Shown: positions 1 through 56,255 of the stretch, in pieces
Layout: each line of letters starts with the position of its first letter
Numbering within the stretch: position 1 is the first letter of the stretch
Source: Vermamoeba vermiformis
Lineage: Eukaryota
Direction of reading: 5' to 3'
Assembly: GCA_045837725.1 (NCBI GenBank)
Contig: JBEWZL010000258.1
Span: 1-63,817, forward strand
Length of the DNA stretch: 63,817 nucleotides
Position numbers and translations under genes: made by a program
Notes under the pieces: model-generated
Told to the model about the DNA's origin: nothing
What the model saw: only the letters and a program-made list of their open reading frames with translations
Databases searched by the model: none

Positions 1-14
1 CCCTAACCCTAAAA

Positions 15-76
15 TGGCTGACTTGCCTCACACCCAACCGCAGCCCCACCAGCCCTAACCCTAAAGGGTATATAAT
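15..76 (+). repeat. 62-bp terminal-like motif ending agccctaaccctaaagggtatataat (copy 1)
   Basis: Identical to 12002-12063; preceded by another ccctaaccctaaa at 1-13. Confidence 0.9.
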
Positions 77-86
77 AGGATGGGAA

Positions 87-1480
87 TTGACAGAGTTTCA
101 AAAATTCAAACCCAAAGCTAGGTGCAACGACGCGGCAGAAAAATTATTGGATACGCTAGGCAAAGGGCGAATAACGATCCAAGACGTACGTAAATTGCTT
201 AAATTCCACGAAGCATTTTCTAATTTAATTAATTTTCGTTTAGATCCACGCGCAAGGAAAAGAGCTGGCGATTATTTTCATGTCTGGTGATGCAATTAAG
301 TTCTCGATGGGGCAAGGAGCTGGGTTTTATGTTGGCGATATGACGGACATTTCAAAACATCCTTTCAACAAGAGAACGAATATGATCTTCAAGTTCTCGA
401 ATGGCAAAGCTGTATTCGTCGTAGACTGCCATAATTTTCAGAATCAAGTGGTAATCTCGTGGAAGTCTCCGTCGGAATGGATTTTTGAACCAGTAAAAGG
501 ACCTCACCTGTTTGAAGATACCCAGAGATTGGAGCGACACATACTCAAAGTGATGCACCAAAACCCTGAGTATTTCGAGGTAATCGTCACTGTTGTTCTA
601 CTTACCAAATTGTAATCGCACATTCCAGACCGCATCTCTCCAAGCAGCTTTGATTAACCAAACTCTGTTTAATGGCATTGGCTCGTATTCCTCATCAGAA
701 ACGTCCTTCCTGTTTCGCCTGAAGACAAGTACGCCAATTTCAAATGCTTTGAGCGGCTAACTTATTGCTACCAGACGCTCGGCCATGGTTCCTTTTCAAA
801 GATATAGTGCGATTTGGCCTCTTGCCTGTCCTCATTGGCATGATTCAGAATTACTTTAAGGAGATGGAGCACTACGTTGACAAGTATATTGGAGAGGCCA
901 ACTGCACCGTTTTCAACGAACGAAGATGGCTAGAATTTAGGTCACTTTTTATTCGGATATATCGACAGCCGTCCGTACTACTATCGTCAAGCCACCGAGA
1001 ATCCACCGTCAAGGTCAATTTTCCCACCTTCAAGAATTTGGCTGCGAACATGAGCGTCGGAAAGCCAACAGGATCGTGCTACTTGCTTGAGTCTGAGTTT
1101 GACCCCAATCTGGCTCCCGAAGGCTGGGTCCTCGCTAAGAACAACCCCTTTCGACGCAGGGATATAGGAGTAGGGAGTTTTAACTGGTGGGGTGCTACTG
1201 AGATGTTGCAAGCTCTCGAATCTCCCGAAAAGAATGTGCGTTACCTAATGTTAAATTCGAACTAATATCTATGTAGATTGTTCAACTGCGTGACTCTACT
1301 CTATTGGCATATTCGACTCCCCCCAGTCCTACCAAAGCCAACGAAAAAAGCAGATCCGATGCCCCATCGCAACACGCAGCATCTCCCAGCAAAAAGAGGC
1401 TCAACCAACGGCAGAGAAGATCGCGAAAGATATTAAAGACGATTTTAATCGAGAAGTAAATCGTTTATTTAAAACTAAAA
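87..1480 (+). pseudogene. Divergent Fpg/Nei-family (H2TH) DNA glycosylase-like gene, multi-exon, frameshifted near 280-290
   Basis: Exon at ~629-730 reads SLQAALINQTLFNGIGSYSSSE (H2TH-like); upstream FSMGQG..MIFKFSNG..VD..F..KGP resembles the Fpg N-domain; N-terminal ELTE rather than PELPE; 3' end approximate. Confidence 0.6.
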
Positions 1481-1495
1481 TAAACTACTTTACAA

Positions 1496-1756
1496 TTAAT
1501 CGTCGCCTAAATAGCTACGATCATTTTCGTCGTCTTCTTCTTCTTCGGAAGGCACGTAGTCCAAATCGTTGAGGCTGTCTACACTCGCCAAGTCCTCCTG
1601 AGACTGAGACGAAGACTCGTCGGCGGCTACAGTGCTATCGGAGTCACCGTCGGACATCTCAGGTTCTTCGTAGGCACCTCCGACCTCGCGGTGAAGAAAC
1701 TGAAGGCGGCGAGGGATGTGAACGTAACAGTCCATTGGTGGCAGGTTTGAGTCCAT
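1496..1756 (-). CDS. Small acidic hypothetical protein
   Basis: ATG-initiated ORF MDSNLPPMDCY.. with D/E/S-rich tail, preceded by an (aac)n/A-rich leader. Confidence 0.4.
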   Translation of the reverse strand: MDSNLPPMDCYVHIPRRLQFLHREVGGAYEEPEMSDGDSDSTVAADESSSQSQEDLASVDSLNDLDYVPSEEEEDDENDRSYLGDD

Positions 1757-2189
1757 AGTCGGTGGTCGGTCGTTGTGTTGTTGTTGTTGTTGTTTCAAAT
1801 TTGTTTGAAAAAAAAAATTGCCTTCACGATTTTGAAAATGAACGAACGTGACGAAATGACGTTTTGATATTCACCTAGTGCAACTAACATTGCCGAAGGT
1901 AGAAATGAATCGTCAGTAGTGCTTATCGAGTCAAGAATCTTGCGGCTAATTTCAGTCTGGTCCAAGGTTCAGGTTTGTTTCAGCAATGAGGTGTGGTTTG
2001 AGGTCAGGTATAGAACAAATACTTTGATAGAGTAGCAGGCCTCCAAACGGACTGTGCCCAGCCAAACGCTCGCGCTAAAAACCACGGAAATAAAAGATCT
2101 GATCTTGTTTTTTTTTAATAAACGACTTTGTTTTTTTAAAATATTTTTTATTTAGTAAAATATACAAGGGGCGAGTAAGATTAAAAGGG

Positions 2190-2792
2190 ACTGAGGTTTT
2201 GTTTCTCGTGGCGGATGCCAAATCTCGCATCTGCACCGGTCCATTAGTGGCCCTCGCGCATGGAGATTTGTGCAACGCCATACTAAACAAGCTGCTTTCA
2301 GCCGCTTAATCGGCCGCGCTACCAACAAAGAGCATAAATTTTTGGGCGGTAGCAAATCTCGCATCTGCACCGGTCCATTAGTGGCCCTCGTGCAATGCAC
2401 TATCGCATACCGTCACCAACAATTTGTGCTTAACACGGTCGTGGCGGACTGCAGTTTTGTTTCTCGTGGCGGATGCCAAATCTCGCATCTGCACCGGTCC
2501 ATTAGTGGCCCTCGCGCATGGAGATTTGTGCAACGCCATCCGAAAAAAAGGCTGCTTTCAGCCGCTTAATCGGCCGCGCTAACAAAACCGATAACAAGCA
2601 TAAATTTTTGGGCGGTAGCAAATCTCGCATCTGCACCGGTCCATTAGTGGCCCTCGTGCAATGCAACACCGCATACCGTCACCAACAATTTGTGCTTACC
2701 ACGGCCACAGTACCTAGGTAGGTACGCAATTAATTGCTGGAGGCAGATGCAAAATCCGCATCTGCACCGGTCCGTTAGTGGCCCTCGTGCAG
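2190..2792. repeat. Tandem repeat, ~260-bp period, core aaatctcgcatctgcaccggtccattagtggccctcg x5
   Basis: Core copies at about 2220, 2354, 2478, 2620 and 2752. Confidence 0.9.
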
Positions 2793-2850
2793 GCGGATTA
2801 CGCAATCAGCCGCGCAATATAGTTGGTGCTGGCCGTGCTGGTAATTGTGC

Positions 2851-2921
2851 TTGGTGCTGGTGCTTGGTGCTGGTGCTGGTGCTGGTGCTGGTGCTGGTGC
2901 TGGTGCTGGTGCTGGTGCTGC
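2851..2921. repeat. (TGGTGC)n hexamer microsatellite
   Basis: About 11 near-perfect copies. Confidence 0.95.
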
Positions 2922-3497
2922 ACCAGTTGTGGTTGTGGTGTGTGGTTAGCTGAGAGATAATGGTTGCGGCCGAATTTTTAGCAACCTGAACTCAGTCCAC
3001 GACGAGCGAAGTAGCGAATGGCCAATTGCCAACCGTGAGGAGCATCGCGGAATGAAAAGGGAGGGAAGCAGAGGCAAGTAAGCATTAATTAATGTTAAAA
3101 AAAAAATTTAAATCCGGATTCGAAAAAAAATTAACGTTACAAGAATTACGCAGGGCTTATTGATCCCCGTATATATTTCTGCTTACACACAAATAGACAT
3201 TGTGCAGTCAATACGGTAAGGAACACTTGGGACATTAGATGCAAAGCGGATCAAGGAACAACACTGCCTCGATGAGTCTTAGTGAGGTTATTGTCAAAGT
3301 CAGCAAGACGAGCTTCGGCATGAATGAGTTTGTGTGATAATACGACGAAATCAATATGCGATTTTTGGCAAAAAGGAAGTTGCACTTGGCAACTAGCCGT
3401 TACAAAAAATAAAAAAATTGCGCGCAATTAATCTTCTCTGCGGTTTTATGTAATCTTGTTTATTTATTATTACCAAAACAAATAAAATTCATACAGC

Positions 3498-4395
3498 CTA
3501 TTTTGTTTTAGGCTTACTTTTTGTTTGTTCGGTTACTTTGAGCAGCGCCTCAGTCTTGGTTTTCCTGACTTTGGTATCGTTAGCTTGGCGCGTTGATTTT
3601 CTTGTACATTTGGGTTGGTTTCGGGGTCTGCCAAGCCGCTTTACTTCAGATCGGTGTGTTTTTTTGATTTTTAGCCGGCGAAAATAACCTGAACCTAAAG
3701 ATCAGGTTAGATTCGGATCAGTAAAAAAAATCCATTAACTCAACTTACCATATCTAATGAAGAATTCTTCTCCTCGGCTAATTTTGCGGCTTGCAATCAA
3801 TTTGATTGCTTTTGTGCCGTTCTCCTCGACAACTTTTCCAGTCCTTACGTTATGCTTCTCACCTACTGGGGGGCAATTAACGAATCGACCAAGTCCTTGA
3901 AGACCTTGCCAACCAGTTCGTCCATCAATTGCCTCGTGGTAGCCTAAGTGCATCACGTATGAGGGATCCTTAAGAGTTGGAACGGAGTCGCGAGGAATTA
4001 CGTCGCCCATATAAAGGGTAACTACCTCGTCCTTCTCATAGTCACGTGCTGCAAAGAGACCTTCACGAGATAAACCAAATTTAATAACTGAACGTAAAAA
4101 TTGACAAAAAATCTGAAAAATTGGACGTACCTTTTCCTGAGATGGGCGACCGAGATACAATAGGTGATATTAAGTTTTGATTCTCATTGATCTTCTTGGG
4201 CGGAAACTTTTCGGCAACCGGATCTGGTACTGCAGTTCGTAGACTTCGAGCACATGAGCTGCAAAACACATTTTTTTTACGTGAGGGAGGCACTGTCTCT
4301 ATGGTTATAAAAACCCGCCATTCAGGTTTGATCTGCCGCCACTCGGATGAGGAGGTAGTTCCGCACTTCTGACAAAAACCTCGGTATTTTGCCAT
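3498..4395 (-). CDS. GATA-like zinc finger + SET-domain methyltransferase + AT-hook-like basic tail (3 exons)
   Basis: CQKCGTTSSSEWR..FCSSC; spliced SPISGKGLFAARD..GRFVNC..ASRKISRGEEFFIRYG; tail KRLGRPR; GT-AG introns restore one frame. Confidence 0.8.
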
Positions 4396-4740
4396 TTTAA
4401 CGATTGACCCAGTTGCGTATTTGTGTATAAATAGTATTTCAAAAATGTTAGGCGATAAACGGTTCGTTTTTAGCCAAAAAAAAATGGATGACTGAAAATG
4501 TTAGATCGGACCCGAAGTTCGAACTGAAACCAAGTCTAAGTATCAATAATTGCTTAAGTAATACCGTGTTGGGCCCGTTTGATATAGACAAGAAGGTAAA
4601 TAAGAGTTGAAGGTTGACGCATACCTGCGAGGTGTGGTTTGAGGTTAGATATGAAGGGAGGTGTGGTTAGAAGGTAAAAAGTTTATTAACTAAAAATACA
4701 CTAACTATGGTCTAAAACTAAAAAAGGAACAATAAACTAA

Positions 4741-5778
4741 TTAATTTGGCTTGTGCTTCTTTTTTGGAGGTGACTCATCATCCTCGATGATAATGCGCGA
4801 TGAAAGAGTGAACCGTACTTCTCCGTCCGGTTCAGCCTCAACAATTTCCTCGTCATCATCGAAGACAATGTCCGAGCAAAGACTGAAGGTACTTTGCTCT
4901 CCAACAGTGTCAGTCTGAGCGATTTCAGTCACGTTTTTTGACGCTGAAGGCTGGTCGGGTCCGGCATTAGAGGCAGGAGGAGTTTGTGGCTGCTGAACAT
5001 CACCAAAGACATCTGACTTTTGAACGATGCGCTCTTTGTTGACTTTGGGATGATTGTGATACTTCTCTACGACGAGCTTCTGAACCTTGCCGTTTCTATC
5101 AACGCGTACCACTGCTGGAAGCTTTGGCAAAGGCACCTGTCCCTTCGTTGGGTATTGGCTCTTTGTAGGTGTTGGACGAGGGGGTGCACCATGTTTTGCG
5201 GGTGGGGCTCTCTTTGGGCAACCGTCGGCATTGGTTTGCATCAGGGTGAGCCAACGGATCTTGGGTGGTGATTGATCCCGCCACGGCCCACCAGTTGGAG
5301 GTCCGCTGCATTTCGAAGAAGTTCCACCGCGAGGCTGATTTTGGGGTCTCAACGGCCGATAATACCCCTGAGGTACCGCACATGGCTGAGGTCCATTCTT
5401 AGCAGTGGGGGTAACTTGCTTTCACCAAGTGCCTCGTTTTGAAGAGGTGCCGCGAACAATGGGCTTCGGGTGATGTTGCGGAGCCCGGAAGACATCATCT
5501 GCTGGCTCGTCTTCCATGCTGTAACTGGAGCCGCTATAAGAGGTACGTGGCGAGGTACGTGGAGAGGTACCTGGCGAGGTATCGGGGCTTGACGAAGAGC
5601 TAATGGTAATGGGCTTCGGCCAATTTTGCGACGCTTGCGGAGCACTCAAGCCATCCCCTGTTGGCTCGTCTGGCATGCTGCGATGAGAGGTGCTGTTTGA
5701 GGTACCTGGTGAGGTATCTCCGCTCGGTAAAGTTTTTTGTGCATCGCTCCATCTCGGACTGAACGCAAAATTAGCCAT
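4741..5778 (-). pseudogene. Low-complexity S/P-rich protein with one in-frame TGA at 5422-5424
   Basis: ORFs 5422..5778 and 4741..5352 are in the same frame, joined by 23 open codons after a single TGA. Confidence 0.55.
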
Positions 5779-6458
5779 TAGTAATTAAATTATCGAAATA
5801 CATAAAAAATGTCAATAATATGCGTACGTATAATAAATAAAAAATTTTTAGTGTCTTTTTAGATTAAATTTAAAAATTCCTTACCTAGGAATAACTTCTG
5901 TAGGAGGTATTAATACGTTATTACCGAACTTCATCCATTTACCGAAAAAAAATATTATGTTATCCTTTTCATTTGTGTTTTTTTGCATCGTGTTTTCGGA
6001 TCTGACTATAACTGCTGGCTTTGGGCTTGAATGATTGAAATTCTTTCAGTGCGTGATAAAGTGTTAATATTTAGCGTTGAATTGTCGTTAAAGGACGAAA
6101 CCTAAAGATATAGCTCAATTCTGAAGATTTTGACAGCTAATCACCATCGGGATTACCAAAAATTGAAACGTTTGCGCATTAGATGGGACATATTACCTGG
6201 TTTTCGATGTAAAGATAAAGAGGGGTGATTAATAATTTTTTAATTTTTTTTTTGACAGATCCAAGTGTATTTTGAAAATAATAGTCTTAAAATGCACAGG
6301 TAATATCAAACGGGCATTGGCGGGATAATTAAATAATTTTTTAGAGTCAGAATCAAACGGCAAATAGTACGGCTGATTTCTCCAGGTGTAGCTTCAGGTG
6401 TAGGTTCAGGCTGAGCAGAGTAATGAGGCGTGGTTTGATGTGAGGTGTGGAATTGAAT

Positions 6459-8952
6459 TTATTTTGGCCGTGGGGGATTGATCTCAGCAATCATTTTACA
6501 AACAAGATGGATATCTTCGGGACGGACACTATCGCGGCCTGCGTGTTCCGAGGTTGACTGGGCAAGGCGCATTAAGTCTGTGATCCAATTTTCAGCCGCA
6601 ATCTGCAACGTAAAGACAGCATCACCATGCCACTCAACTTCTTCAGGACCTCCCTCTGGCAAAGACTCAAGTACTCTACTTGTTGCCGACATCACCATGC
6701 GCATGAAATTCGGTGGTGGGATTGCACGTTCTTTTCCACGCGAAGTTGTCTCCATGAATTTCTTAATACCTGAGAGTTTTTAGCCAAAATACGTAGTACA
6801 AGATAAAGCTTACGTTCAGGTACTTCTTCTTCTTCTTCAGGTATTTTGTCAACCCTTCGTTTCTTTTTTGGCGGAGATGATTCTGGCTCGTTACTATCTA
6901 TTAACCGACGCTTTTGAGGGGTGTTCTTCTCTTGTTTCACGATGCTAGGATTGCTGTCGGTATCCACTATAACGTGCTTATTATCCGAGCTGTGACTGCT
7001 ATCATTTTCAGGGCTGTCACTGCTGTCTGTATCCACAACGATAAGCACATTATCGTTCGGATTATGGCTGCTTGTCGTATCAATAACAAGCGGCACATTG
7101 CTGTGCAGACTACCGCTATCGTCATCTGGACTTCGACTGCTGCCAGTGTCTACAATTAGCGGCACATCATTGTCCAACATGATTGCATGTTGCTCGGAGA
7201 TGGTAATGCGCCCAGGTTCTTCTTTCAAATCAGCGTCGTCATCTTCCTTGCTCAGCGCCTCATCTGGTCCGTAGATTTCTTCAATGGCACTGTTTTCGCA
7301 TTCTTCACCTTCTGCCGAGAATCGAGGTGATACGCCCAAGTCTGTCTGGATGTTGTCGATTTCCTTCACAGTTGCTATCCTCGAATCGGTTTCATCGCTC
7401 GAGTAAGGTATTGTGCCATTGTCGTCTAACGGCACTTCATCGGCCTGGGGCTCATTGAACTGATCTGGCTTGGGCTCGGGGACTCGTTTAGGCCTTTGGT
7501 AGGGCGGGATATAAGAGCTAGTTTCACTTTGTGCACCGACGTTAGCTCCCGTGTTCGAGGTAACCTCCGCTGACTGAGCAGAGTGTTGAGTTTGAGCCAG
7601 TTTCGCTTCAGGAGGAGTGGGTTCTGCCAGTATCCTATGAAGCATCTCCTGAGTAGACCCTTCCTAGATCAAATATAAATTAATACATTTCTCGAGTTTA
7701 ACACCAATACTTACGTCATTTTGCGTTTCATTTGGTGCTGCATTTTCGTTAGGGGAAGGACTTGCATTTGATTCGTAAGGTAAAGTCTCTGCAAGCGCAA
7801 CATTATCCTGATCGATTTGCGGCTGCGGGCTCGAGTTTGGGGGCAGCATGGCGATTCCAGGAGACGAGGAGGGACGAGGCGATGAGACCGAGCTTTCCAC
7901 CTTGCTGAATGATGGTGCCAGTAAATCAGCCGCCAGAAGCTGCGTTGCATCATCATCATCGTCATCTTCTAAATGGATAGAAGCAAGGTTGAATTGCGTA
8001 CTGCTCTGCGATAGCTGTCCAGAAGTATTAACGAAGTCAGCAGATTGTAGAATAATGGTGCTGTTGGCGCCTGGAGATAAGTCGAGACTTTCAAATACAG
8101 GGCCTTTCCACGCAGGCACTGCATTTTTTGCATTAGAAACTACAGGTGGCTTCCAAGAGGAGCTTGTTGGAGAAGGATGAGGCATCTCGGGACTAGCACT
8201 TTGCGAAGCTCGAGCTACGGCCACAGGTTGAGCTATAGCTCTAGGTTTAGCTACAGCCTCAGGTTGAGGTTTAGCCTTAGGCTGAGGTACGACGGTAGGT
8301 TGAGGTACAGCTTTAGGTTTGGGTACGTTGGTGCGGCTCTTTTTCTTTGAAACCTTTGGCGGCTGCGTAGAAGGCGGTGCACTTTGTCGTTTATTGCTAG
8401 GCTGCTGCGTGCTGAGTGAAGTGACTAGATTCGTGCTCTTTGGTGAACTCCGCTCTTGTGGCGCAGGGTTGACCAATACTGGGCTAGTAGTATTCGTTAT
8501 ACTGGGTACGTTTTGGGTGAGAAGTAGACCAGACGGCTGAATCAAGCCTTGACGCGATGAAGTCTGCTCTGCGGCTGATTTGGACTCGACTGGAAGATTC
8601 AGATCTTGTTGGTTAAGAGGATGAGCAGGTTGTTGACCCCTACAATGGTTTGCCACGATACTATCTAAAACTGCATCCCAGATCTGATGTTGTTTACGTT
8701 GAATCAATGTTACCAGGCTAAAAATATTAAAAAATTAGCCGTGGCCAAAATAATATGAAAAAATCCATTATTAATGCCAAGCAGTAATTTCCATTATAAT
8801 TTACATATTAATTAAATTAAAAGTTGAATTCCTTACTCGGGAGCAGATTGGGCTGACGATGGCTGAACACGGCTATTACTTCTTCTTTTATTTTTTTTTG
8901 TTTTATTTTTTTCATTGTTATTTTTATTAGTATTGTTCTTGTTATTATTCAT
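6459..8952 (-). CDS. H3-like histone-fold protein with a very long (>600 aa) low-complexity N-terminal extension
   Basis: C-term IPPPNFMRMV..WHGDAVFTLQIAAENWITDLMRLA..HAGRDSVRPEDIHL matches the H3 fold; introns near 7714 and 6813 join ORFs 7664..8707 and 6692..7645 in frame; PPKKKRRV NLS; first exon tentative. Confidence 0.7.
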
Positions 8953-9018
8953 GTTGGTCGGATTTGAATGTCTAACTTTGTGTTGTTGCGGCTAATTTTT
9001 AAAACAAAATCCGCCAAA

Positions 9019-9982
9019 ATGGATTACGAGTAAGCACTTCATTTAAATAAATTATAATTTATTCCTATTATTAACAATTTAATTAGGTACTACAAAAAGC
9101 ACCGTATTGTCGTCGATAAGCGAAAAAGATTAATGTGGTTAAATACTGATGGAATTAGTAAGATAACATCTATTGGCATTACCAAAATTAAAGAATTGGC
9201 AAAAGATATATATCCTGCACAAAGTAAGTAGAAAAAATTTAATTAAAATTAAAGATGAAATTAATTTATTTTTTTTTAGACTGTTCCGAGTTCATAAACC
9301 AATTATCGATACCAGGAATACATGGGCAGCAATTAAAGGGATATTGGTTTGAACTTGGCACAGTGAATGAGATTTTGAGAACTGTCACTCCTAAAACAAA
9401 GGATCTTAGTTCTCAATGCGACAACATTCAGTAAGTCATCAATATGCTGTTAATACAACCGAACTAAACATGGCTGTTAGGAAGGTTCTGGAAACTTACC
9501 AGCTCAATCAGCTATTTCGGGTTCTTCGTCAAAACGGCAAGCCGCAGATCTACGCAAGAACCCCAGATGGTGCAGAACCTCCAACAAACGTGCCATCGAA
9601 CGTCAAGCCAAAATCTGAGGTTAAGGCTAAACAGAAAGAAAAGAAAGGAATTGGCCTTCCCGGTGGTGACTTTTTGACGAGTGGCGAAAAAGAGGACAAA
9701 CTACACGCACTGCGTTACTTCAACTATGGGCTTCATACTGATGCCAGCAAGATGGTAATAAAAAAAGGAATGCTAGATGCGGACTCACCTTTCACTGAAA
9801 TGGATCTTGATATCGATTTGAGGGAGTCCTGCAACGAGTCCAAGTCTGCCAGCGAAGAAGATGAATCCCAGTCCAGTGCTTCGTCAGACTCTTCCCCTGA
9901 TGTTGAATCCTCTTCCTCTGACTCCGAGAGTTCATCGCACCCTTCTTTGGCCGATTTTCAAACTCCGAAGAAAGGCTGGTAA
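9019..9982 (+). CDS. Hypothetical 'GYWF' family protein, copy 1 (multi-exon)
   Basis: Exons give KHRIVVD..GISKITSIGITKIKELAK and GYWFELGTVNEILRTVTPK; paralog at 12952-13930. Confidence 0.6.
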
Positions 9983-10479
9983 TTTCGTATCTTGCAATTT
10001 TGTAACCTGTAACTGTTAATCTTTGTAATAAATTATTTTCTTCGTTAGTCAAAAATACGTGCAGGTTTGGTTTTCTGAAACTCGACCGTTCCCCCTCCGC
10101 GGCCGATTTTTTATTCAGCCTAATGCTCGCAGCGCAGCCTATGCTGTACAGACTGAGCCATCGAGAGGTTTACCAGTGTCGATTTCCCATTCAGTTTCAA
10201 TTTCCCATTCAGTTTCAAGCGCGTTAGTTAACTAATGCTGCACCAGGCAGGTGAGGTTCTTCATCCAGACCTAATGCAGGAGGTTAAGGTAATATCGGAG
10301 GTGCTAGTTTGTTCCTGGTCCTGAACCAAGTTGCTAGATCATGTATAACTCCACCTTATTGATCATTATAGCTATCTTTGATAGTGCAGTTTTAAACAAA
10401 TGTCAGTTTGACAAATGACAGCTGTCAAAGATTTCGTTTTGTTTTTTTGCGATGAAATAAATTAATTATCACCGCAACA

Positions 10480-11154
10480 ATGATGAATACACGCGCGCAC
10501 CTTCGCAAAATTAACGAGCGAATTGAAGAGCTCGAATATGAGTTGGAAATTGCGTATCTGAAAATGCGCTGCAGCATCGGTTCGTATATTGCAAGTAAGT
10601 ATAATTTTTAGTTTGCAATTTCTATTACTTGTAGTTTAATTATTATTTATAATATTATTCGGGATTGATTGCAGTAAAAATTAACAACGTTTTTTTTTAC
10701 AAAATAATTTTTTGTAATTAAAATATAATATTTAAGGCGCCACAAGACGGCACGAATTCATACCAGCTTCCCACGACATTGGTCAAGAGTTGGCAAGAGC
10801 GAGAGAGCAGTTCCCTGACTGCAACTTGTAAGTAATGTACTTTTAAATAATTTTTCAATTTTTTAACTAACTCGAGCAGCAACTTGAATCATCCCGATGC
10901 GATCTACGCTCGCACGCTCTATTGCAGGGCTTCTCGTATGGAGCAGTACACCAGCATTCTATTGCTGGGCGAGAAGCTCAAACGAGATGCCATCATTCGG
11001 GACTACATCGAAGGTAAGTACTTAGTTTATTTTATCTTATTTTGTGAAAATTTTACTAATTGATTTGTTTTTAGCTCTCACCGGCCAGCTTGATGAATCC
11101 GTAGGACCTTTTGTTGACCTCGATGCGGAATTAGCCGCACGAGGCTTGAATTAA
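10480..11154 (+). CDS. Small multi-exon hypothetical protein
   Basis: MMNTRAHLRKINERIEELEYELE.. with GC-richer exons separated by AT-rich gtaagt..ag introns. Confidence 0.5.
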
Positions 11155-11186
11155 TCAATAATTCGGTACTTGTAATTGGCCGTAAG

Positions 11187-11880
11187 CCCCCCCCGTCCCC
11201 CTGGCGGACGGGGTCTTATTAAATAAATATACCCCCGTCCCCCTGGCGGACGGGTATCAACCAATTTTGTAATTTGTGGATTTCTGAGGCTGAACCTGAA
11301 AGGTTAGGTACTACTTTCCAACCTGACCTCAATGCGGAATCAGCCGCACGAGGTTGCTGATACTTGTAATTGGCTTTATGCCCCCCCCCCGTCCCCCCCT
11401 GGCGGACGGGGTCCTATTAAATAAATATACCCCCGTCCCCCTGGCGGACGGGTATCCATCAAGTATTTCAAGCCCAACATACCTGAGGCTGAACCACACA
11501 GGTCAGGTATAAAGTAAGTACCTAGTGAGGTTGAGGTTGTGCATTAGCATTGAGTATGTACCTGATGCTGAACCTATCAGGTTGAGGTATTTGCTACAAA
11601 CCTGATGCAGGAGGTAAAGGTACATGACAGCGATCCCGAGGTGGATACAGCACCCCCCGTCCGCCAGGCGGACGGGTCCTTATTAAATTAATATACCCCC
11701 GTCCCCCTGGTGGACGGGGTCCTATTAAATAAATATACCCCCGTCCGCCAGGCGGACGGGTATCCATCAATTTTATAACTGGGTATACCTCAGGCTGAAC
11801 CTGGCAGGTTAGGTACTATTTACTTTCCCAGTGTAGCATGGGTTGATAACGTGCCCCCGTCCACCTGGCGGACGGGGTCA
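11187..11880. repeat. Array of 8 hairpin palindromes ccccgtcc-N7-ggacggg(g) with AT-rich spacers
   Basis: Copies at about 11191, 11232, 11387, 11430, 11654, 11696, 11738 and 11854. Confidence 0.9.
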
Positions 11881-12001
11881 GTTATCAACTAAGGCACCAA
11901 TTTCCCAGTATACAGGCTACTCCAAACATCTTGTTTATTTAATGTCACATACATTGGCCATGGGTGGCGGCTGATTTGTACAAATGTTTGATTGGCCTCT
12001 G

Positions 12002-12063
12002 TGGCTGACTTGCCTCACACCCAACCGCAGCCCCACCAGCCCTAACCCTAAAGGGTATATAAT
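12002..12063 (+). repeat. 62-bp terminal-like motif (copy 2)
   Basis: Exact match to 15-76; directly abuts a 5'-truncated Nei-like gene. Confidence 0.9.
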
Positions 12064-12945
12064 CAATCAGAGTTTATTTAATGGAATTGGGGCGTACGTA
12101 TCTTCTGAAATATGCTTCTGGTTGCTTGAACTGAAAGGTATTTTAATTAAACCGGATTTGCGATCTGTCGAATAATTTATTAAGTACTAGGTGTTCGCCC
12201 TTGGACTAATTTTAGATCATTTTGCGGCCAATCTGCAGAAAACCTGGGCTGCTTGATTCGTATCATCCGCGTATATCTACAATTTATGGAAAAATACATA
12301 GCAACTCACGGCTCTGAATCCACATGCATCAACTACAATGAGTGGAAATGGCAAAACTTTCGTGCCGTATTTTTGCGAGTTTATAGACAACCAAGCGTAT
12401 ACCGATCTGGTCAACGAGTGAAGATTCAGAAATTCTCGTTCGGATTAACGAAAGCAGGCAGCCAAGGAATGAAAATAACTCGCTCTAAAGCTCAATGTTT
12501 TACTCCTGAACTCAGCGAGGATGAGATACCGCCAGCGAGTTGGTCAGAAAAGCGGGTGAATCTGATCGGCAGGAATTCCCTGGGTGTTGGTTGGTTCAGT
12601 TGGTTTGGCGCAGTGGATCGGAAAATTACTCTGGAAAGCGCCCAAAAAGACGTACGTAATAAGTAACTGTTACAGTATTCTTATGAAGTTAACTACTTGA
12701 AGGCGATCCAACTCCGACCAACTTCGAAAGATCTGCTTTTTGGTAAAGAAAAGTCTGAGGAATGCTACAGTAATTTCGACGACGATATGGAAAGCGAGGA
12801 AGATTGCGACTTGAGTACGGAAGAACAAGCCCAACGGAATGACAATAAGCCTGAACCAAAGGAACCGAAGAAAAGAGAATCGCAACGCAAGCGAATAATA
12901 AATCGCCTAAATAAAGAGATGGCTGAAATTGTCTCGCAAAAATAA
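12058..12945 (+). pseudogene. Second Fpg/Nei H2TH-like paralog, 5'-truncated
   Basis: INQSLFNGIGAYVSSE and NEWKWQNFRAVFLRVYRQPSV..R..LGVGWFSWFG align with the 629-1240 copy (NERRWLEFRSLFIRIYRQPSV..R..IGVGSFNWWG). Confidence 0.65.
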
Positions 12946-12951
12946 ATTTAT

Positions 12952-13930
12952 TTAATAACTTGAATCAGTGACAGAGTCAGACTCATATCCCCACGCCGAA
13001 GGAGAGTCACCAATAGTTACGCTGAACATACATGTTTGTGCCTCGCTATTTTGGAAGGTGTGGCTCGTAATAGCGGTCTGTTTGTAATTTGAATATTTAC
13101 TCCTCGTTGAACTTCGCTGAATTACAGCGTCACTACGTAATACTGGATACAGAGTTTGGTTCGCGTCTTCTTGAATTGATTGAGTTACGTTGTGGCTAAA
13201 TATTTGTTCGAAAAATACACCTTTTTCATAAAGCATTCTGCCGATCTGCCTTTGCTTTTCATTCATGAGACGAAAAGCCCTTTCGATATTATCTTCAACA
13301 TCGATGGACTCGATGGAGTAATCTTCTCTGGTTGCTGGCCTCACCTCGATCTGCAATCGTATTAGTATTAATGACAAGTATCGTTTGCAACAAATATTAC
13401 CTGAAATGCACCATTTGTGAGAACAACGTGATAAAACCTATCCAGGCTCGTTTCGAATAAGACCTGTCTATTCTACGGTCAGTAGTTACTATGGGTTAAT
13501 GAAAAGATCTTACCTCATTTTCTCCAGTTGCGCTCCTGGCCTCGTTTGCTTGGGTCGAGCGCTTTTTAATATTGAATTTACGACGCAAAGTCCAAACCAG
13601 TAGCCCTCACGAGTGCATTGACTAATGTTAACTCGAAGATCGGATATGTTCACGCCTGAAAATAGTTTAGTGCTAACATTTCATCGAAATAATATCAATA
13701 AATACTTACTTAAATTATTATATTGTTCTTTTGCAAGTTGCTTGATTTTAGAAAGACCGATCGACGTCAAATTTGATATTCCCAGTGGACTAATTAGCAA
13801 CTGGCAGGTTTTGACGTCAAACAATATTCTGTGCTCCTTAAAATATCTAACGGTGTTAAAATTGAGTTTTGATTAACCTACACTTACGTGTAGTCCTGAT
13901 CGAGTGACATGTCAAAATAATTTTACTCGT
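12952..13930 (-). CDS. Hypothetical 'GYWF' family protein, copy 2 (multi-exon; start uncertain)
   Basis: EHRILFD..GISNLTSIGLSKIKQLAK and GYWFGLCVVNSILKSARPK align with 9019-9982. Confidence 0.55.
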
Positions 13931-13972
13931 ATCCCGATGAATCTTTAATGAAATCAACGAATAGCAACACCC

Positions 13973-14382
13973 ATGCAACACGGCGACGAATCAAAGGAAA
14001 CTAATCCCGAACAAACACAAAGTGAAAGCAACTCAACCTCCAACGTCACAAAACAAATCGAATTGCTTGATTATTATAATAATATGTGTATTGATCGTGT
14101 AGCATTCAGCAGACTTGTTTAGTAAGTGAAATAATTGCGGCAATTATTGTGAGTTGTAAGATCTTACGCGCATCTCTAAATTTATTTTGCAGTGAAATTA
14201 CTCGTTCAGTTAAAGACGACACCCGCTGGAATGGCGATGCTCTATTAATTTTACACGTTATATCCGAGCAATTCCTTGTTGAGTTTTTCGAACTTTGTGG
14301 GATCAAGGCGACTACAGAAGATCGCGTTACGATTACCGCTGCAGATATAAAATCATTTATCAAAACACAGCAGTATTTGTAA
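13973..14382 (+). CDS. Second divergent H3-like histone-fold protein (start uncertain)
   Basis: LFCSEITRSVKDDTRWNGDALLILHVISEQFLVEFFE..RVTITAADI resembles H3 (DLRFQSSAV.ALQEA.EAYLV.LFE..RVTIMPKDI). Confidence 0.6.
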
Positions 14383-14754
14383 GCCTCTGATTTACATTAT
14401 ACACAAAATAAATTTGAGTACGATTTCTGGACATAGAGCTCGGTTGCCGTACTTGCACCTGACAAGAATACCACAATTTATATTTCGTGGACCAGCATCA
14501 TCTTCGTGCGCATCTACATTTTTCATTATCCCACACGCCACCACGTTAGCACAACAGCGCAACAACAGAGCAATTTCGTGAGATCGGCTTTTGCTCATGT
14601 AGTCGCATAATTGCTCGTTCAAATAAATGTAAGTTCATTAAACCGACTTGGAACATTTTTTTACGAACGGATTGACATCTTGAATCCGTTCAAACACGAC
14701 AGATCATTCATTTTAAATTTTAAAAAAAATCCCAAAGTATATCGTACTGTTAGC

Positions 14755-15062
14755 GATGCTGAGAGGGTCTCCAATGACCCGTTGGCAGAGTTATAATGGT
14801 ATGAATTTGAAGCGATCTTGCACGAAGTTTATCAAATTTTTATTCCGTTTAGATTTAAATGACAACCAAGTGTAATGCTAGTATCAATGCTGAGAGGGTC
14901 TCCAATGACCCGTTAGCGGAGTTATTAAGCGTGACACTTTGCGCTGTCTATCCGGATTTATCTGGCTGCTTTTCGAGCAGGCTTGAAGAGAGGGTCACCA
15001 ATGACCCGTCTAATAGCCCAACAGAGTCTAAGTCTTGCGGGGAGGGTCGCCAATGACCCGTC
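14755..15062. repeat. Four copies of palindrome gagggtc-N6-gacccgt
   Basis: Copies at about 14761, 14892, 14988 and 15041. Confidence 0.85.
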
Positions 15063-15179
15063 TGCATGATTGTGACCTGATCGCTTGAGTTGTGACAGAT
15101 TTGATCCGTTCTTTAATCAATTAATTTAATAAATATACGACAAGAGATTGCTGGTTGGATCTTACATGGTTCTTGATTT

Positions 15180-16290
15180 AAGGACTGCGATAATCTTCTT
15201 GTGCGCGGTGATTAGACCGTCCAGAAGTTGGACGGTCAGATGCTAGTTGCGAATTCGCCCAGATCTGGGAATTTGCAACAAGCAATGCCCTACAATAAAT
15301 CAATACGTATCGATGGTATTACCCGATGTGTACTTACTCCGTTTCAACGCTTCGACGCGTGTCGCCGGGTCACTCAATAGTGAAAATTGTTTAGCTCCGG
15401 ATTCAAATTTGAACAATACTAAATTATGTTATTCATATTTAAGTGCTGCTTTCATTTAATTGATCTATATTAGTTGTTTGTACTTACCTGTAGCGCGATC
15501 GATGCGCACCAACAACTTCTTTCCTGATCGGGATCCGCGACGGGTTATCTATGGACCCCAGTTCCACATCATTTTTCTACATAATAATTATTGTCAATAC
15601 ATTGTTGGAATAATTCTTAACAGGGACCACCTACTTTTAGAGTAATTGATGTTCTGTATTAAAACTTTGATGGATCGAGACAGGCCGAATCTCGATCTCA
15701 CTCATGCACTTCAAGGGTCGCTGCGACGCATAATAACCTGCAATCATGTTAGAGGTAGTACGCTAACCGTTTTTATACATACTTAGACTGCTAATCACTG
15801 CATTAACGGAAATTATAACACACCAGATCGCGCGTCACCGAATTCACTAATGTTTTCCTCAGACCCTTGTACTAACAAATAAACAATGTTAGAACTTCAA
15901 AACAACATATATAACTAATTGACTTACTTTTAGCTCGGTCCACGCAACGTTGCATAAACTCGATCAACGAGGGGCAGGGATGTCAGCGGTAAAAGCGAAG
16001 ATGTACTAATTCTAATAATATTACAGAGTTAGTAAGTATTAATATATTATAATAATAAGCATTAATTACTTACTAATTGACGGCTGCTAATTTTCTCGCT
16101 GAGTGTCTTTGTCACGGTCGCAATGGGATTCGTGACCGTTCGTTTCCAATACAAGGGACACATTGACTCATCCTGAGAAGAGGTTTGTTAGTAGTGACCG
16201 GTAATAATGTATTTATGGACTTATACGGACTAAGAGGACTTGCGACTGCGCAGTCGATCGTGCGCCGAGTTGAGGTCGTCTGAGAACACT
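15180..16290 (-). pseudogene. Degenerate multi-exon gene remnant of unknown function
   Basis: Regular gtaagt..ag intron pattern on the minus strand, but exons contain stop codons. Confidence 0.3.
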
Positions 16291-16439
16291 GCACTGACCA
16301 CGCGCAAGCACGTATGAACTACATTATATTGTATAATAAATAAACCGAGAACCAACAAAAAAGCGTAAATTACGAGCACTAGGCTCGATCTGATAATTTT
16401 GAGTTTAACTTGAAAATTTAAAATTGAATTTACAATAAA

Positions 16440-18330
16440 ATAATAATATGATAGGTGGAAATATTATAAGTATTACCTTTAATAATCTCGGTCACTGCAC
16501 CGGAGATTCGCACGACTTCGGATTGCGCTCTGAGTCTCGCGCTGGAACGACGCTGCTTGCCGTTTGGCGCGTGTTTAATATCAATTATAACGATATTAAT
16601 AATAATAAATCGACCCTTGTGGTCGATCTGACGCGAATCCAAGTTCGCATCACTTTTCATCCAAATAACTCGCGCTGAACGGCCGTCGCGACCGTGGCGC
16701 GTCACTGTCTGCTGATAATATTCAATGAATAATAATATTTCGACCCTTGTGGTCGATCTGTAAACTTTTAAATAATAATATTTAAACTGACACGCGATTC
16801 GAATTTGTTCTAATCCGACATAACTCGCGCTGAACAGCGGTTGCTGCTGTGACGCGTTACTATCTGCTGTTAATTCATCAGAAGAATATCAATAACTCGA
16901 CCCTTGTGGTCGATCTGTCGCGTGTCTATTATTGAATTAGAATTGATCGAGTTTTCGAAAATGCTGCCATCTTTCGTTAATAGTGCATTAAATTCAATGT
17001 AATATATATACAGCCTATAACTCAAAACATCCATAATATCAAAAATTTAATTTCCCGATCGGTTTTGATCTTATCGCATCAAAGTGCCTGTAATGGCTTG
17101 CAGCCTTGTCCGAGCTCATATGAGTTTTATTGTTTAAATAAACGAACAACCATCGGTGTAATTGAAAGGCAAAGCAAGCAGCTATGATCTCACCCAACTG
17201 CTATCCAAGGAAAGGCCATAATATGTTTCTTTAAAGAAAAATAAACAAATAATTCTACTCTTTTGGCCGATGATACGTTGATCTCAACTTTCTAGAAACT
17301 AAGTGTAATTGGGTATCTTTAGCCGACCTACGCAACGGTCACTTCCTGATTTGGTCGGCCGCACACGTGTCTGCCAAATATTGCTGTTCTGTGTTGGGAA
17401 ATAACCTGGCACGGCCAAATTTTCAGTGAAAGGTATCAATTGACACGTGTCACACTCCGGGCATCCCGGTCCCGTTCACAAATCTATTTCCAAACCCTGA
17501 CACACGCAACAGGATCGACCACAAGGGTCGCACTGTTTATTGAATGGTTCTTTACAATATAATAGCACGCGCCAAACGACTCTCAGCGTCGTTCCAGTGC
17601 GAGACTCAGCGTACGATCTTCAGTCGTGCGAATCTTGGTGCAGTTTTAAGTTATTTCTATCACTTGGTCGATCAATTATTGATTATTTATTGATTATTAG
17701 ACCTGTTAGTGACACGCCACGACGCCAACGTCGTTTCAGCGCGACGTATTTCGGATTAGTCAAATTCGCACGCGTCAATTTTAGAAAGTATTTTTAAACC
17801 GAAGACAGATCGACCACAAGGGTCGATTTATTTATTTGTTGGTATTACAACGTTGTAATTACAGCTGACAGTAACGCGCTGTGGCATCAGAGCCGCTCCA
17901 GTGCGAGTTATTTCGGATCAGAGCTGATGCGAAAATGGCGCACTGGCTATTTCGCATCAGTAATTCAACAGAACGACCACAAAGGTCGTTATATTTATTT
18001 ATTATTGTTAATGAACAACAGATAGTTACGCACCACGGCCACAACGGCCGTTCAGCGCGAGTTATTTCGAGGATTGGCAGTCGCGAACTTGGATTCGCAA
18101 CAGGTTGGCCACAAGGGTCGATTTGTTTATTTAGATAGCTTATTGTTTATTAGCACACACGCGCCAAACGACATTCAGCGTCGTTCCAGCGCGAGACTCA
18201 GCGTACGATCTTCAGCAATCCGAAGTCGTGCGAATCTCGGTGCAGTGACCGAGATTATTCAAGGTAATAATTTTTCATTAATACAGCCACCAATTAACAT
18301 CATTATAAGAATTAATAGTTGTTTTAATTT
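16440..18330. repeat. Large modular imperfect inverted repeat (arms ~16440-16930 and ~17510-18330)
   Basis: 16482-16574 is the reverse complement of ~18154-18259; cgacccttgtggtcgatctg (16611, 16741, 16898) is mirrored at ~17513, 17806, 17970 and 18105. Confidence 0.9.
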
Positions 18331-18759
18331 TTAAAATTACGGCTTTGAACTCAATTTTTACTCTTTATTCTAATCCAACCAAATATTTACTTAATTATGG
18401 TTTTATTAAAATTACAATATACTAACACATTATTGTCAATGTACAGAAACCTGGCACGATGCGCGATCAAATCTGTCCTCGTTCAGCATCGTAAGTTTTT
18501 GAATTTAATAATTATAGCAATGCGTTAATTTCGATATTTTATTAATTCCTAATAGGCGAGAATTAAATGCCTGCACCATAATGATCGCCTTTGTAAAAGA
18601 ACGAGCACGCAGCATCACGTAAGTATTAATCTGTTCATTTTATTATTTACGTTACTAAGTAATTTGAGCACTAATAATTTAATTAGCATATGAAGTAATT
18701 GGTGTTATGACACGATGCTTCTACATCCAAGTCTGCATGCTGTCTTGGTGTTTTGCTCG

Positions 18760-20563
18760 TACCGTCCAGTTATTGGACGGCCCTTCGTGCCGCACCCTTG
18801 ACACAACACCGTCCAGTTATTGGACGGTCCTTCGTGCCGCGCCCTTGACACAGCACCGTCCAGTTATTGGACGGTCTCCTCAGCGTGGCTCGCACCGTTC
18901 TCGCACTGTCTAACACTTGGACACTTCAAACGATGCTCAATGATGGTGCACGGGGTAAGTTTTTTGATTTAATTTATTTTAAAATCAAATGCGTGGTATC
19001 TAACCTTTTTGTTCTCGTAGCACTCCTGGCCTGATTTTGCTTGCTTACAAGCGTGCACTTGTATATTTTCAAAGATGATTCCTAGCACTGGTAGGCTTGG
19101 CTGAAGTTGGGTAAGACGCTCTGAATTTTAATTGACTTTAATTCACTAATCGATCAGTTCTCTTTCACAACAGCTGTGTGGCTCGCACCGTCCAGTTATT
19201 GGACGGTCTCTTCTGTGGTTTCTTGGAGCGTGGCTTGCACCGTCCAGTTATTGGACGCTCCCTTCAGTGCCACGCCTTGACACAACACCGTCCAGTTGTT
19301 GGATGGTTCCCTCTGCACCGTGCCTCAGTTCGACACCGCCCAGTTATTGGACGGTCCCTTCAGTGCGTGCCGCACTGTCCAAGTCTTGCTTGGCTCAAAC
19401 CGTCCAAATTCTGGACGCTTTTTTTAGTGGCTTGCACCGTCCCCTCTGCCCTCAGTGTGCCACCGTCCAGTTATTGGACGGTACCCTCTGTGCCGCACCC
19501 TCACGTCACACCGACCAAGTGTTGGAGGTTTTGTTGGTGCATTGCTCGCTGACACCATCATTCAGTGCCACCATCCAGTTATTGGATGTGGCTCCTTCTG
19601 CGTCATGTCCCTTCTGTGCCGTCCCTTCAGCGTGCCACCGTCCAGTTATTGGACAGTTCCCTCTGTGCTGTGCCTCAGTTTGACACCGTCCAGTTATTGG
19701 ACGGTCCCTTCAGTGCTAGCATGCATCTTGGATGCTTGGCTCAAACTGTCCAAATTCTGGACACTTTATTGACTGTAAATAAAGTTTTATTTTTGAAAAC
19801 AACTCCTTATTGTTTGACAGGGTGTGCATGCGCTGTACAGTGTGTGAGGGGGTGTACAGCACGCTACACAGGGGTGCAAGGGGGTGTACAGTGTGCTGTA
19901 TGGGGAAAAAACCTAGCCCCAGCCCTAAATCCTATAAAGTTCACTTCTTTGGACTTAGTTTTTTTTAGGGGTCGGTTTCACGTGATACCGCCCCTTGTGG
20001 GACTTAGTTTTTTTCAAGGGTTGGTTTCACATGATACCGGCCCTTGTTGGACTTTTTTTTTTTTTAAACCTTTTGTGACTTTGTTTTTTTAACCTTTCCT
20101 GTAGGACTTTATCTCACAAGCCTTCACCTTGCCTTTGTCTTGCAGCCTTGCTCTATGATACCTTTGTACACAATTGTAAATTTTAAATAAAAGAATATTT
20201 AATCCCAGCTTTGGTTTATTATTCTCTAGAAACATTGTACAACAACAATAATAAATTTGAATAGGCTTTATTTAAGTTTATTTACTGTGCCATTTTGAAT
20301 ACATAAAATAGAATTTTCAGTCAAAAGTTTAACAAAAAATGAGTTTAAGAGCTCTTTCGCAAACTCGCACCGTCCAAGTCTTGGACACTTTATTGGTCAT
20401 ATCTTGCTCCGTCCAGTTATTGGACAGTCCCAGTGCCTAGCTCGAACCATCCAAGTTTTCGACACTTGTCTCAAACTGTCCAAATTCTGGACGCTTTTTT
20501 TCCAGCACGGCTCGACACAGTCCGCTCTGCCCTCAGTGTGTCACCGTCCAGTTATCCTGGACA
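18760..20563. repeat. Array of ~20 palindromes accgtcca-gttat-tggacggt with related 17-45 nt spacers
   Basis: About 15 copies in 18761-19765, ~5 degenerate copies in 20369-20563, and a lone copy near 15217. Confidence 0.9.
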
Positions 20564-20939
20564 TGTTTGTAATTATAATAAAGTTTTGTATTTAAAAACT
20601 TTTATTGGGTTTATGCTTTCCAGGGGTTCAAGGGGTGTACAGCATGCCATACGGGGGTGTGAAGGGGTGTACAGTGTGCCGTATGGGGGTTCAAGGGTGT
20701 ACAGTGTGCTGTATGGGGGGAAAAATCCTAGCCCCAGCCCCAAATCATTTAAAATCAGCTTTGATGTGGCATTCAAACGGTACGTGCTTCATGGCAACGG
20801 TTTCAGTACTAATCCCATCGAAGATCTTGACAATCAAGCCACACCAACTGCAACACTGCAAAAGAAGCACAAGTACAATAAGAAGTTCCGCCGCATGGCT
20901 GAAAGACATGCAAACAAAATGAAGCTCAGTTAATCTTCC

Positions 20940-21357
20940 TGTGCTGGTCACGCTCTCAGCCCTCCGTGACCTGCTGGTCACGCTCAGTCTCTACCCTTGT
21001 GACCTGCTGGTCATGCCCTCAGCACTCCGTGACCTGCTGGTCACGCTCTCTCTGTCACCATGGCCAGGAGGTCACGCTCTGTCCCTGTAACCAGCCGGTC
21101 ATGCTCTCTATCACCGTGTCCAGGTGGTAACGCTCTCCCTGTCCCTGTGACCGGCTGGTCACACCCTCCCTCTGTGGCCAGCTACTCTCTGCCTTGGGTC
21201 ACACACCCTCTGTGACCAGTGGGTCACTCTCCATACCTGGTCACACCTCAGTCTGCCCCCGTGACCTGCTGGTCACACTCAGTCTCTGCCCTGTGACCTC
21301 TCAGCCCCTGTGACCTGCTGGTCACGCTCTCAGTCCCTGTGACCTGCTGGTCACGCT
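20940..21357. repeat. ~30-bp-period array of palindrome gtgacc-tgct-ggtcac
   Basis: More than 12 variably degenerate copies. Confidence 0.9.
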
Positions 21358-21642
21358 TCTGTCTGTGGCCCTGTAATATTGGCCTTGCCTAGCAGCTGGG
21401 TTGTAGCTGCAAAAATAAAGCAAAATTTAAGGAAACCTGGTTTTTTTTATTTACCCTAAGACCCCTAAGCCCTAAAAGGCTATATAATAAAGAAATAACT
21501 GGTAAGTAAACTGGGACAGAGGTTAGTTGTGGGCCAAAACAACCAAAACATGAAAGCTAACACACTCTAAACCAAAAACAAAAACATGAGTGGCATGTGG
21601 CTTCATCCACATGAAAGTGTTCTTTATCTGCCTGCTAGCAGT

Positions 21643-56233: not shown

Positions 56234-56255
56234 ATTTATGAAAATAAACTCTGAC

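Follow-up and report, generated by a model that had tools for sequence, protein, structure and literature searches.

Diverged glycosylase-histone gene cassettes lying head to tail beside telomere-type repeats in Vermamoeba vermiformis: a possible subtelomeric stack

How do two related but anciently diverged gene clusters come to lie head to tail beside telomere-type repeats, with no transposase to be seen in either? The question is raised by a stretch of 63,817 nucleotides (nt) from Vermamoeba vermiformis (contig JBEWZL010000258.1), referred to here as the window, in which unit A (77-12063) is followed in the same orientation by unit B (12064-21488). Both belong to an old, multi-lineage family of cassettes that comprise a Fpg/Nei-type glycosylase gene (Nei-like), an orphan gene (GYWF), a divergent H3-fold gene (H3-like) and then palindrome arrays. 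A first-pass annotation, made from the sequence letters only, had taken the units for a candidate new element family or an endogenous virus. Using contigs from sequencing runs (Logan) and from metagenomes for comparison, we arrive at a different reading, with a probability of about one half: the window would hold a subtelomeric stack of ancient cassette paralogues that arose by repeated breakage and capture of chromosome ends. Neither a virus nor a transposase-driven element is the best explanation of the locus. The absence of a visible transposase is borne out by a Pfam scan of 150 of the 151 stop-to-stop open reading frames (ORFs) of at least 55 amino acids (aa) in 1-21640, the one omitted being a microsatellite ORF. 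The scan returned Histone (two matches), SET (one) and a weak Bromo_TP on one of the histone ORFs, and nothing else; none of the 150 ORFs matches a transposase, integrase, tyrosine recombinase or reverse transcriptase (reverse transcriptase families at E <=0.001). A narrow literature search found no published description of such a cassette.

The evidence starts with the junctions. The window opens with telomere-type C-strand repeats (1-14, + strand; CCCTAACCCTAA plus AA) and a 62-bp junction module (15-76, +) ending in (CCCTAA)2AGGGTATATAAT. A second copy at the end of unit A (12002-12063, +) proved identical to the first at 62 of 62 positions in a self-comparison of the sequence, and a third, degenerate copy closes unit B (21454-21488, +), with three imperfect CCCTAA repeats followed by AAGGCTATATAAT. 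The C-strand repeats share one orientation in all three, and copies 1 and 2 are identical while the innermost, copy 3, is the most degenerate. The motif CCCTAA-N1-6-TATATAAT occurs three times (59-76, 12046-12063 and 21470-21488) where 100 shuffles give an expectation of 0.00, in agreement with the end motif that the first-pass annotation placed at the right end of each unit, the third being degenerate. Besides the module, the self-comparison revealed no nucleotide similarity between A and B, and no terminal inverted repeat between the unit ends, no complete unit end being in view. The units are related all the same, as had been proposed, and head to tail: they share three diverged genes in addition to the module.

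Each unit was said to start with a Nei-like gene. The gene is present in both, but neither copy is complete, and both are 5'-truncated at the module. Gene A (72-1459, +) has five exons (72-185, 244-579, 629-728, 775-1235 and 1277-1459) which, when joined, give an open frame of 397 codons; its four GT-AG introns of 41-58 bp agree with the description of the genes as intron-rich. It is collinear over all five exons with the homologous protein P0021 (68.4% identity, 395 aligned residues), and the similarity sets in at residue 13, in the final bases of the module (ATA ATA GGA TGG). Gene B (12056-12945, +) is more deeply truncated, starting at the putative H2TH motif with the N-terminal domain missing entirely, and it likewise begins within the last bases of the module. 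The truncation points of the two genes differ and the sequence attached to them is the same. Between the telomere repeats and each truncated gene stand twelve constant bases, AGGGTATATAAT, and a few bases (ATAAT) possibly overlap between the right edge of the module and both genes. At the protein level, 753-1262(+) of A matches 12184-12663(+) of B with 34% identity over 156 aa (E 1.5e-25), and a further match joins 584-757 to 11975-12172. In a tree of the C-terminal domain, which resolves into five deep, well-supported clades, A and B belong to separate clades that each also contain sequences of other origin, in line with the earlier suggestion of an old, diverged family.

In Fpg/Nei enzymes the catalytic N-terminus is Met-Pro-Glu, with Pro2 as the nucleophile and Glu3 as a catalytic residue. 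The first exon of the relatives described below encodes MPEDGEI (loci L001 and L003-L005) or MPEELEI (L007), that is, an M-P-E-x-x-E-I start, and no such exon (ATGCCNGAR) was found in 1-22000. As the catalytic N-terminus is absent, the copies in the window are probably inactive. It may instead be that the module was inserted into intact Nei-like genes, the missing 5' parts then lying beyond the start of the window. P0021, the 407-aa homologue of A and a member of one cluster, comes from a Logan contig and has none of the four introns; its source would be either a transcript assembly, the homologue then being expressed somewhere, or a gene copy devoid of introns. Residues 1-12 of P0021 correspond in alignment to the last part of the MPE exon in L003. 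From an ATG at 11984 a frame runs open through module copy 2 in phase into Nei-like B (11984-12137), so that an N-terminally replaced protein is formally possible, and the module frame is likewise open into gene A, although without a start codon. The module was considered as a native promoter of the Nei-like gene and rejected because full-length relatives have ordinary, module-free upstream regions.

Cassettes of different lineages thus lie in the same orientation beside telomere-type repeats, each Nei-like gene has lost its 5' part exactly at the 62-bp module, and the (CCCTAA)2 of the module is oriented as expected for this chromosome end. A plausible history is that erosion or breakage of the chromosome end reached, time and again, into the outermost cassette and was then repaired by copying or joining another cassette-bearing chromosome end. 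The joining may have used a few bases of microhomology (ATAAT) at the right edge of the module, and the repair would have left short internal telomere tracts behind. That both Nei-like genes are cut exactly at the module, and that the junctions are more degenerate toward the chromosome interior, favours end breakage and capture over transposition or viral integration. Repeated loss and repair of the end is suggested by these two features together with the orientation of the repeats, the microhomology and a junction in a relative of the cassette that resembles a healed break. The breakpoint in that relative is 2.84 kb upstream of the Nei-like gene. In two of its loci, L003 and L004, TGGGGAC(CCCTAA)2CCC stands directly upstream of the place where similarity to L001 and L005 begins, whereas L001 and L005 have no telomere repeat there and continue into unrelated DNA in which DDE_Tnp_4 and DDE_3 fragments lie. 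Upstream of the 22-base telomere-tagged sequence, L003 and L004 no longer agree with each other, and that part of L003 consists of tandem repeats with GTCCA/TGGAC half-sites. The junction has the appearance of a break that healed and afterwards came to lie inside the chromosome.

The closest analogue would be the X-Y' arrangement of Saccharomyces cerevisiae. Y' elements, too, are gene-bearing subtelomeric units that lie in tandem, head to tail, with short internal telomere tracts between them; recombination, not a transposase, probably carries them from one end to another. Copies of Y' hardly differ from one another and encode a helicase, whereas the units here are ancient paralogues with truncated genes, palindromes and a Nei-like/H3-like/GYWF cassette. 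If the stacking model holds, losses and repairs of a chromosome end are clearly recorded in the window, time after time and in dated layers, for a eukaryote that has received little study.

Several observations weigh against this history. The twelve constant bases (AGGGTATATAAT) between the repeats and the truncated genes are not explained by simple telomerase healing, and nearly the same module edge recurs at three to four junctions, as would be expected of a defined molecular end more than of random microhomology. The telomere repeat at the start of the window is only 12 bases long, too little to establish a true chromosome end. Both an exact repeat of 62 bp and a multi-copy array lie across the join between A and B, and Logan contigs break inside the module. 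Lastly, when a three-gene cluster with non-coding palindromes is kept across lineages with Nei-like proteins of only 34% identity, one would sooner expect a mobile or viral unit than host genes.

The first of these difficulties recalls the Terminons, or Athena elements, endonuclease-deficient Penelope-like retroelements of bdelloid rotifers with reverse-complement telomere repeats at the 3' end (PMC6431247). Units A and B could, in the same manner, be 5'-truncated copies of a telomere-attaching retroelement whose RNA ends at the module and is copied onto eroded chromosome ends by a reverse transcriptase from the lost 5' part or from another place. Head-to-tail, 5'-truncated, multi-gene copies with accessory genes, separated by short telomeric repeats, match the published account (PMC6431247), and the constant 3' edge with its ATAAT microhomology to both truncated genes is equally suited to this origin. 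A 12-base tail and a reused module edge would follow readily from attachment of a molecule whose end is defined, which is the way Terminons are described (PMC6431247). The reverse transcriptase of Terminons sits in the 3'-terminal part (PMC6431247). In comparison with Terminons, the window has no reverse transcriptase among the 150 ORFs and no hammerhead, has twelve extra bases, carries genes on both strands and shows low-copy depth. Neither a hammerhead ribozyme nor any other Rfam match at E <=1 was found in 1-22000, an E-value scan of the same region giving only two chance-level matches to other families, none of them significant; the RNA fold of the module region is not unusual (z = -0.17). 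Introns are, moreover, retained in the sense-strand Nei-like gene, and the depth looks single-copy. This origin is very unlikely.

The weakness of the A-B join invites another suspicion, that separate chromosome ends, each bearing one of the units behind an identical module next to the telomere, were connected through the repeat during assembly. The module is an exact 62-bp repeat beside a multi-copy array, and two Logan contigs, from a run that resembles the source, begin inside it (positions 49 and 12037). In run X3, which is from the species of the window or a close relative, contigs are about 99% identical to the window over 10784-12012; one has (CCCTAA)3AAAA directly before 11964 and a different sequence after 12066. 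On its right-hand side the module is thus joined to three or more different sequences, and telomere repeats precede it in two of three observed left contexts. On the other side, the window is continuous as given and another X3 contig runs from the array into the module. An artefact is unlikely, is compatible with the other readings and, even if true, would alter the stacking only, leaving the cassette family and the truncations as they are. The same X3 contigs, together with the contrast between L003/L004 and L001/L005, show that the end motif marks differences in flanks between copies or samples.

Depth was followed in run X2, which contains 94% of the sampled words. Error-free pieces cover the genes of A and B at a depth of 226-377. 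Summed k-mer depth, which is not a copy number, reaches 1549-3986 over 10673-12006, 16009-18676 and 19344-20000 (1549-2848 in the A array and 2301-3986 in the 16009-18676 repeat) and about 230-480 over the genes. Taken with caution, the values are those of unique sequence in the gene parts and of multi-copy sequence in the arrays. Two raw RNA sequencing runs with the same species label gave 35 and 44 reads on 1-20000, mostly partial and on repeats, low counts that neither show nor exclude silence, as there is no positive control and the strain may not carry the locus.

Outside the window the cassette was met at seven loci in a scan of metagenome contigs. Five of these (L001-L005) are from one organism (G+C 0.37) and are mutually 98.5-99.7% identical. 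Together they show the order of unit B, with a Nei-like gene of full length followed by GYWF, which lies on the opposite strand, and then by the H3-like gene. Identity to B is 67% over 156 aa for the Nei-like gene, 67-73% for GYWF and 57% for the H3-like gene (H3-like B against L003 7805-7993). Only L003 and L004 reach the H3-like gene, the other loci ending earlier; in both, the three genes are followed by a single palindrome and, further on, by an array that includes GTCCAAATTCTGGAC. The B-type architecture of Nei-like, GYWF and H3-like genes with GTCC-N7-GGAC palindromes thus recurs in a different organism. A further source hints at the same linkage, as an H3-like protein (P0026) and a B-type Nei-like protein (P0008) come from a contig listed at 4850 bp. 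Over four exon stretches compared between the relative and the window, the non-synonymous rate (dN) is 0.21-0.38 and the synonymous rate (dS) is 1.5-3.1 or not computable; with dS at or above 1.5, or saturated, these values indicate that the cassette genes are kept by purifying selection. The locus in L001 is rich in repeats, and Harbinger-type (DDE_Tnp_4) and Tc1/mariner-type (DDE_3) transposase fragments lie upstream of the cassette at 677-2523.

Palindromes accompany the genes in both units. GTCC-N7-GGAC occurs 21 times in the window, seven times at 11195-11859 and 14 times at 15219-20478, and nowhere else; 0.39 matches were expected and none of 100 shuffles reached 21, in support of the arrays that had been noted toward the right end of each unit. 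The block at the right end of A (10673-12001) contains eight copies of a 33-nt CCCGTCC..GGACGGG unit at 11183-11879. The A array (10200-11900) also holds AACCTG..CAGGTT and CCTCGATGCGG..CCGCACGAGG palindromes and looks like a mosaic of several hairpin-forming modules. In B, a solitary GTCC-N7-GGAC palindrome (15219-15233) lies downstream of the H3-like gene, with a counterpart about 100 bp after the H3-like gene in L003 (at 8103) and L004 (at 6575). Arrays of GTCCAGTTATTGGAC and GTCCAAATTCTGGAC palindromes (13 matches) occupy 18764-20492, and a distinct array of GTGACC-N4-GGTCAC with seven exact matches (20942-21357, or 20966-21354 with narrower bounds) stands just before the degenerate junction copy. 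There are three copies of GTCCAAATTCTGGAC in B, and the palindrome is identical in L003 and L004. Exact conservation of this 15-mer is not expected of neutral DNA because synonymous sites are saturated between the species. The conserved palindromes would most plausibly serve to bind a protein encoded by the cassette, with GYWF as a conceivable candidate, and exactly conserved non-coding palindromes of this kind imply a specific DNA-protein recognition system. Unit B contains in addition a multi-copy inverted repeat (16009-18676) with arms of about 450 bp (16468-16919 against 18272-17804, 73% identity), which probably represents an inserted repeat family, of foldback type or another; RNA reads from diverged copies fall on it.

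Conservation on this scale brings back the possibility that the cassette is a new, low-copy mobile element which moves as a whole, genes, palindrome arrays and telomere-like 3' terminus included. It would use its own proteins (the Nei-type glycosylase/lyase to cut DNA, GYWF to bind palindromes) or factors acting in trans, with chromosome ends or other copies as its preferred points of attachment. Paralogous lineages, and species as well, do indeed share gene order and palindromes, with the spacer GTCCAAATTCTGGAC identical between species in spite of saturated synonymous sites; a constant right terminus is joined to unrelated sequences at three to four places; the units are head to tail; and five deep lineages coexist, as they do in element families. 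The half-site repeats that precede the telomere-tagged junction of the relative could be read in the same way. Against all this, the 150 ORFs include neither a transposase nor an integrase or reverse transcriptase match; the window, where no two-ended unit is in view, showed no terminal inverted repeats and no target duplications; and the gene parts look unique in depth and lie in long error-free unitigs. The presence/absence junction of the relative is set off from the cluster by 2.84 kb, on the upstream side, and a healed break would account for it. DNA transposons and Starship-like cargo elements are recognised by a transposase or tyrosine recombinase, terminal repeats and a target duplication, and we know of no DNA glycosylase that drives transposition. 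Movement of this kind is rather unlikely. Of the proposal of a new element family, then, the unit family, its conserved order and the flank differences stand, whereas the self-comparison showed no terminal inverted repeats and the genes look unique in depth. Were the cassette mobile, it would represent a new class of element, one in which no transposition enzyme is known. Because three genes have stayed linked for so long to exact palindromes, a bolder version is still in play, improbable as it is: an undescribed, autonomous, chromatin-bearing selfish unit with its own H3-type histone (and SET in one lineage), GYWF as a sequence-specific binder of its palindrome arrays, strand cleavage by a Nei-type glycosylase/AP-lyase and a telomere-repeat terminus that attaches to ends or to other copies.

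The nature of the encoded proteins bears on these choices. At threshold, the Pfam Fpg/Nei models match neither the Nei-like exons of the window nor the proteins P0021, P0006, P0004, P0012 and P0007, and the H2TH model gives 11.9 bits (E 0.23), below its cut-off of 34.7. Comparison of the exons with PDB sequences produced nothing significant, and a profile search gave the H2TH region of NEIL1 at E 1.9. An hhalign comparison with E. coli Nei places the GK, GPD and H2TH motifs in order, with poor support (probability 3.8%, E 0.011). As a lead, the best ten annotated language-model neighbours of P0021 are all Fpg/Nei clusters (score 0.95, 188 of 256 features shared). AlphaFold models of the family are poor, with a predicted local distance difference test score of 52.6 (P0006 with A1) or 51.5 (P0021 with A5). 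On the grounds of the language-model neighbours, the ordered GK/GPD/H2TH motifs and the MPE starts in relatives, the family is accepted as a putative, very divergent branch of Fpg/Nei. It resembles E. coli Nei, NEIL1 and viral Nei in the MPE start of the relatives and, by the poorly supported alignment with E. coli Nei, in motif order, but has no Cys4 zinc finger and carries instead a long, family-specific C-terminal domain (FxERxW..F..VYRQPS..GVGxFxWWG). It also differs from known members in being invisible to Pfam and very rare (20 proteins in a HMMER scan of 1.84 billion representatives, two of them repeat proteins that look unrelated by eye), and in that both copies in the window are without the catalytic N-terminus. 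Whatever the mechanism of stacking, an unrecognised and very rare Fpg/Nei-like branch that Pfam does not detect is of interest in itself.

The same is true of the divergent H3-fold histone and its orphan partner, which are linked across species. H3-like A (6462-8734, -) has three exons and a low-complexity N-terminal part of about 640 aa; its introns, read by eye, are GTAAGT..AG near 7714-7664 and 6813-6771. The histone-fold exon of H3-like B lies at 14095-14382 (+). Pfam Histone matches both above the cut-off of 26.4 bits (A, 6459-6779(-), E 7.6e-7, 29.9 bits; B, 14095-14382(+), E 1.8e-9, 38.4 bits). Their best PDB matches are H3 or CENP-A and cover H3 residues ~66-125; for B, H3 accounts for at least the 60 best of its 79 PDB matches. 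Only three relatives were found among 5.8 billion proteins. W-x-G-D-A replaces the canonical F-Q-S-S-A at 6462-6779 and 14095-14382 in the window and at 7775-7996 in L003, a derived signature of the family. GYWF A (9058-9982, +) is divergent from H3-like A, and GYWF B (12952-13872, -), which matches GYWF A at the protein level, from H3-like B; 9058-9228(+) and 13684-13872(-) are 47% identical over 51 aa, and 9243-9431(+) matches 13513-13680(-). In both units the two genes of the pair are transcribed away from each other, and from one unit to the other the whole pair is turned round; coordinates and strands bear out the first-pass annotation on this point. GYWF had no match in Pfam, a PDB profile search or a language-model atlas, and a search for longer versions of the protein yielded none from 3705 candidates. 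A suspected likeness of its first exon to the tail and helix 1 of H4, or to a helix-turn-helix, found no support. H3-H4 pairs are divergently transcribed in fungi. With H3 variants such as CENP-A-like and viral histones, the H3-like proteins share the H3-type fold and divergent transcription with a partner gene; unlike them, they are extremely diverged in the fold, have a tail of about 640 aa in copy A and are paired with a gene without detectable similarity to H4.

Unit A also encodes a SET-domain protein (3738-5784, -), with a SET exon (3738-4169), a Cys-rich exon (4084-4500) and a Pro-rich upstream part (4741-5784) that probably belongs to the same gene. Pfam SET matches 3735-4169(-) at E 1.9e-9 with 38.3 bits against a cut-off of 22.4, over positions 3-105 of 105 in the profile. 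Nei, H3-like and SET genes are known from giant viruses, so the units might be relics of an endogenous large DNA virus that carried them. The language-model look-alikes of P0021 lead the same way, the labelled members of these Fpg/Nei clusters being mostly viral. However, no capsid, PolB, packaging ATPase or other hallmark gene was matched by Pfam among the 150 ORFs, and IMG/VR scans with the Nei-like, H3-like, SET and GYWF genes found no relatives, within a sensitivity limited by the search patterns. The genes have short spliceosomal introns, their long-term purifying selection would have acted in a cellular context, and the G+C of the units (0.42-0.44) is that of the rest of the window (0.43). 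An endogenous virus is highly improbable, and this part of the earlier proposal is not sustained.

The window as a whole is eukaryotic in character, with many short GT-AG introns and an even G+C of about 0.40-0.49; no tRNA genes were found in it. Two minor features of unit A are an acidic ORF (1496-1870, -) without a Pfam match and a stretch of repeats (2188-2920) made up of two copies of a 266-bp tandem repeat and a (GTGCTG)14 microsatellite. Far from the units, and unlinked to them, ORFs with a DUF7869 domain (59334-61196, E 1.8e-47) appear transposase-like by sequence and would make up a transposon-like gene. An intron-free ORF of 1590 aa without a Pfam match lies within 51461-58507, where its neighbours on the opposite strand are bpMoxR/AAA_5 and AAA_lid_8 ORFs. 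In bacteria these domains belong to ternary systems of the MoxR-vWA type, and they are unusual for a eukaryote.

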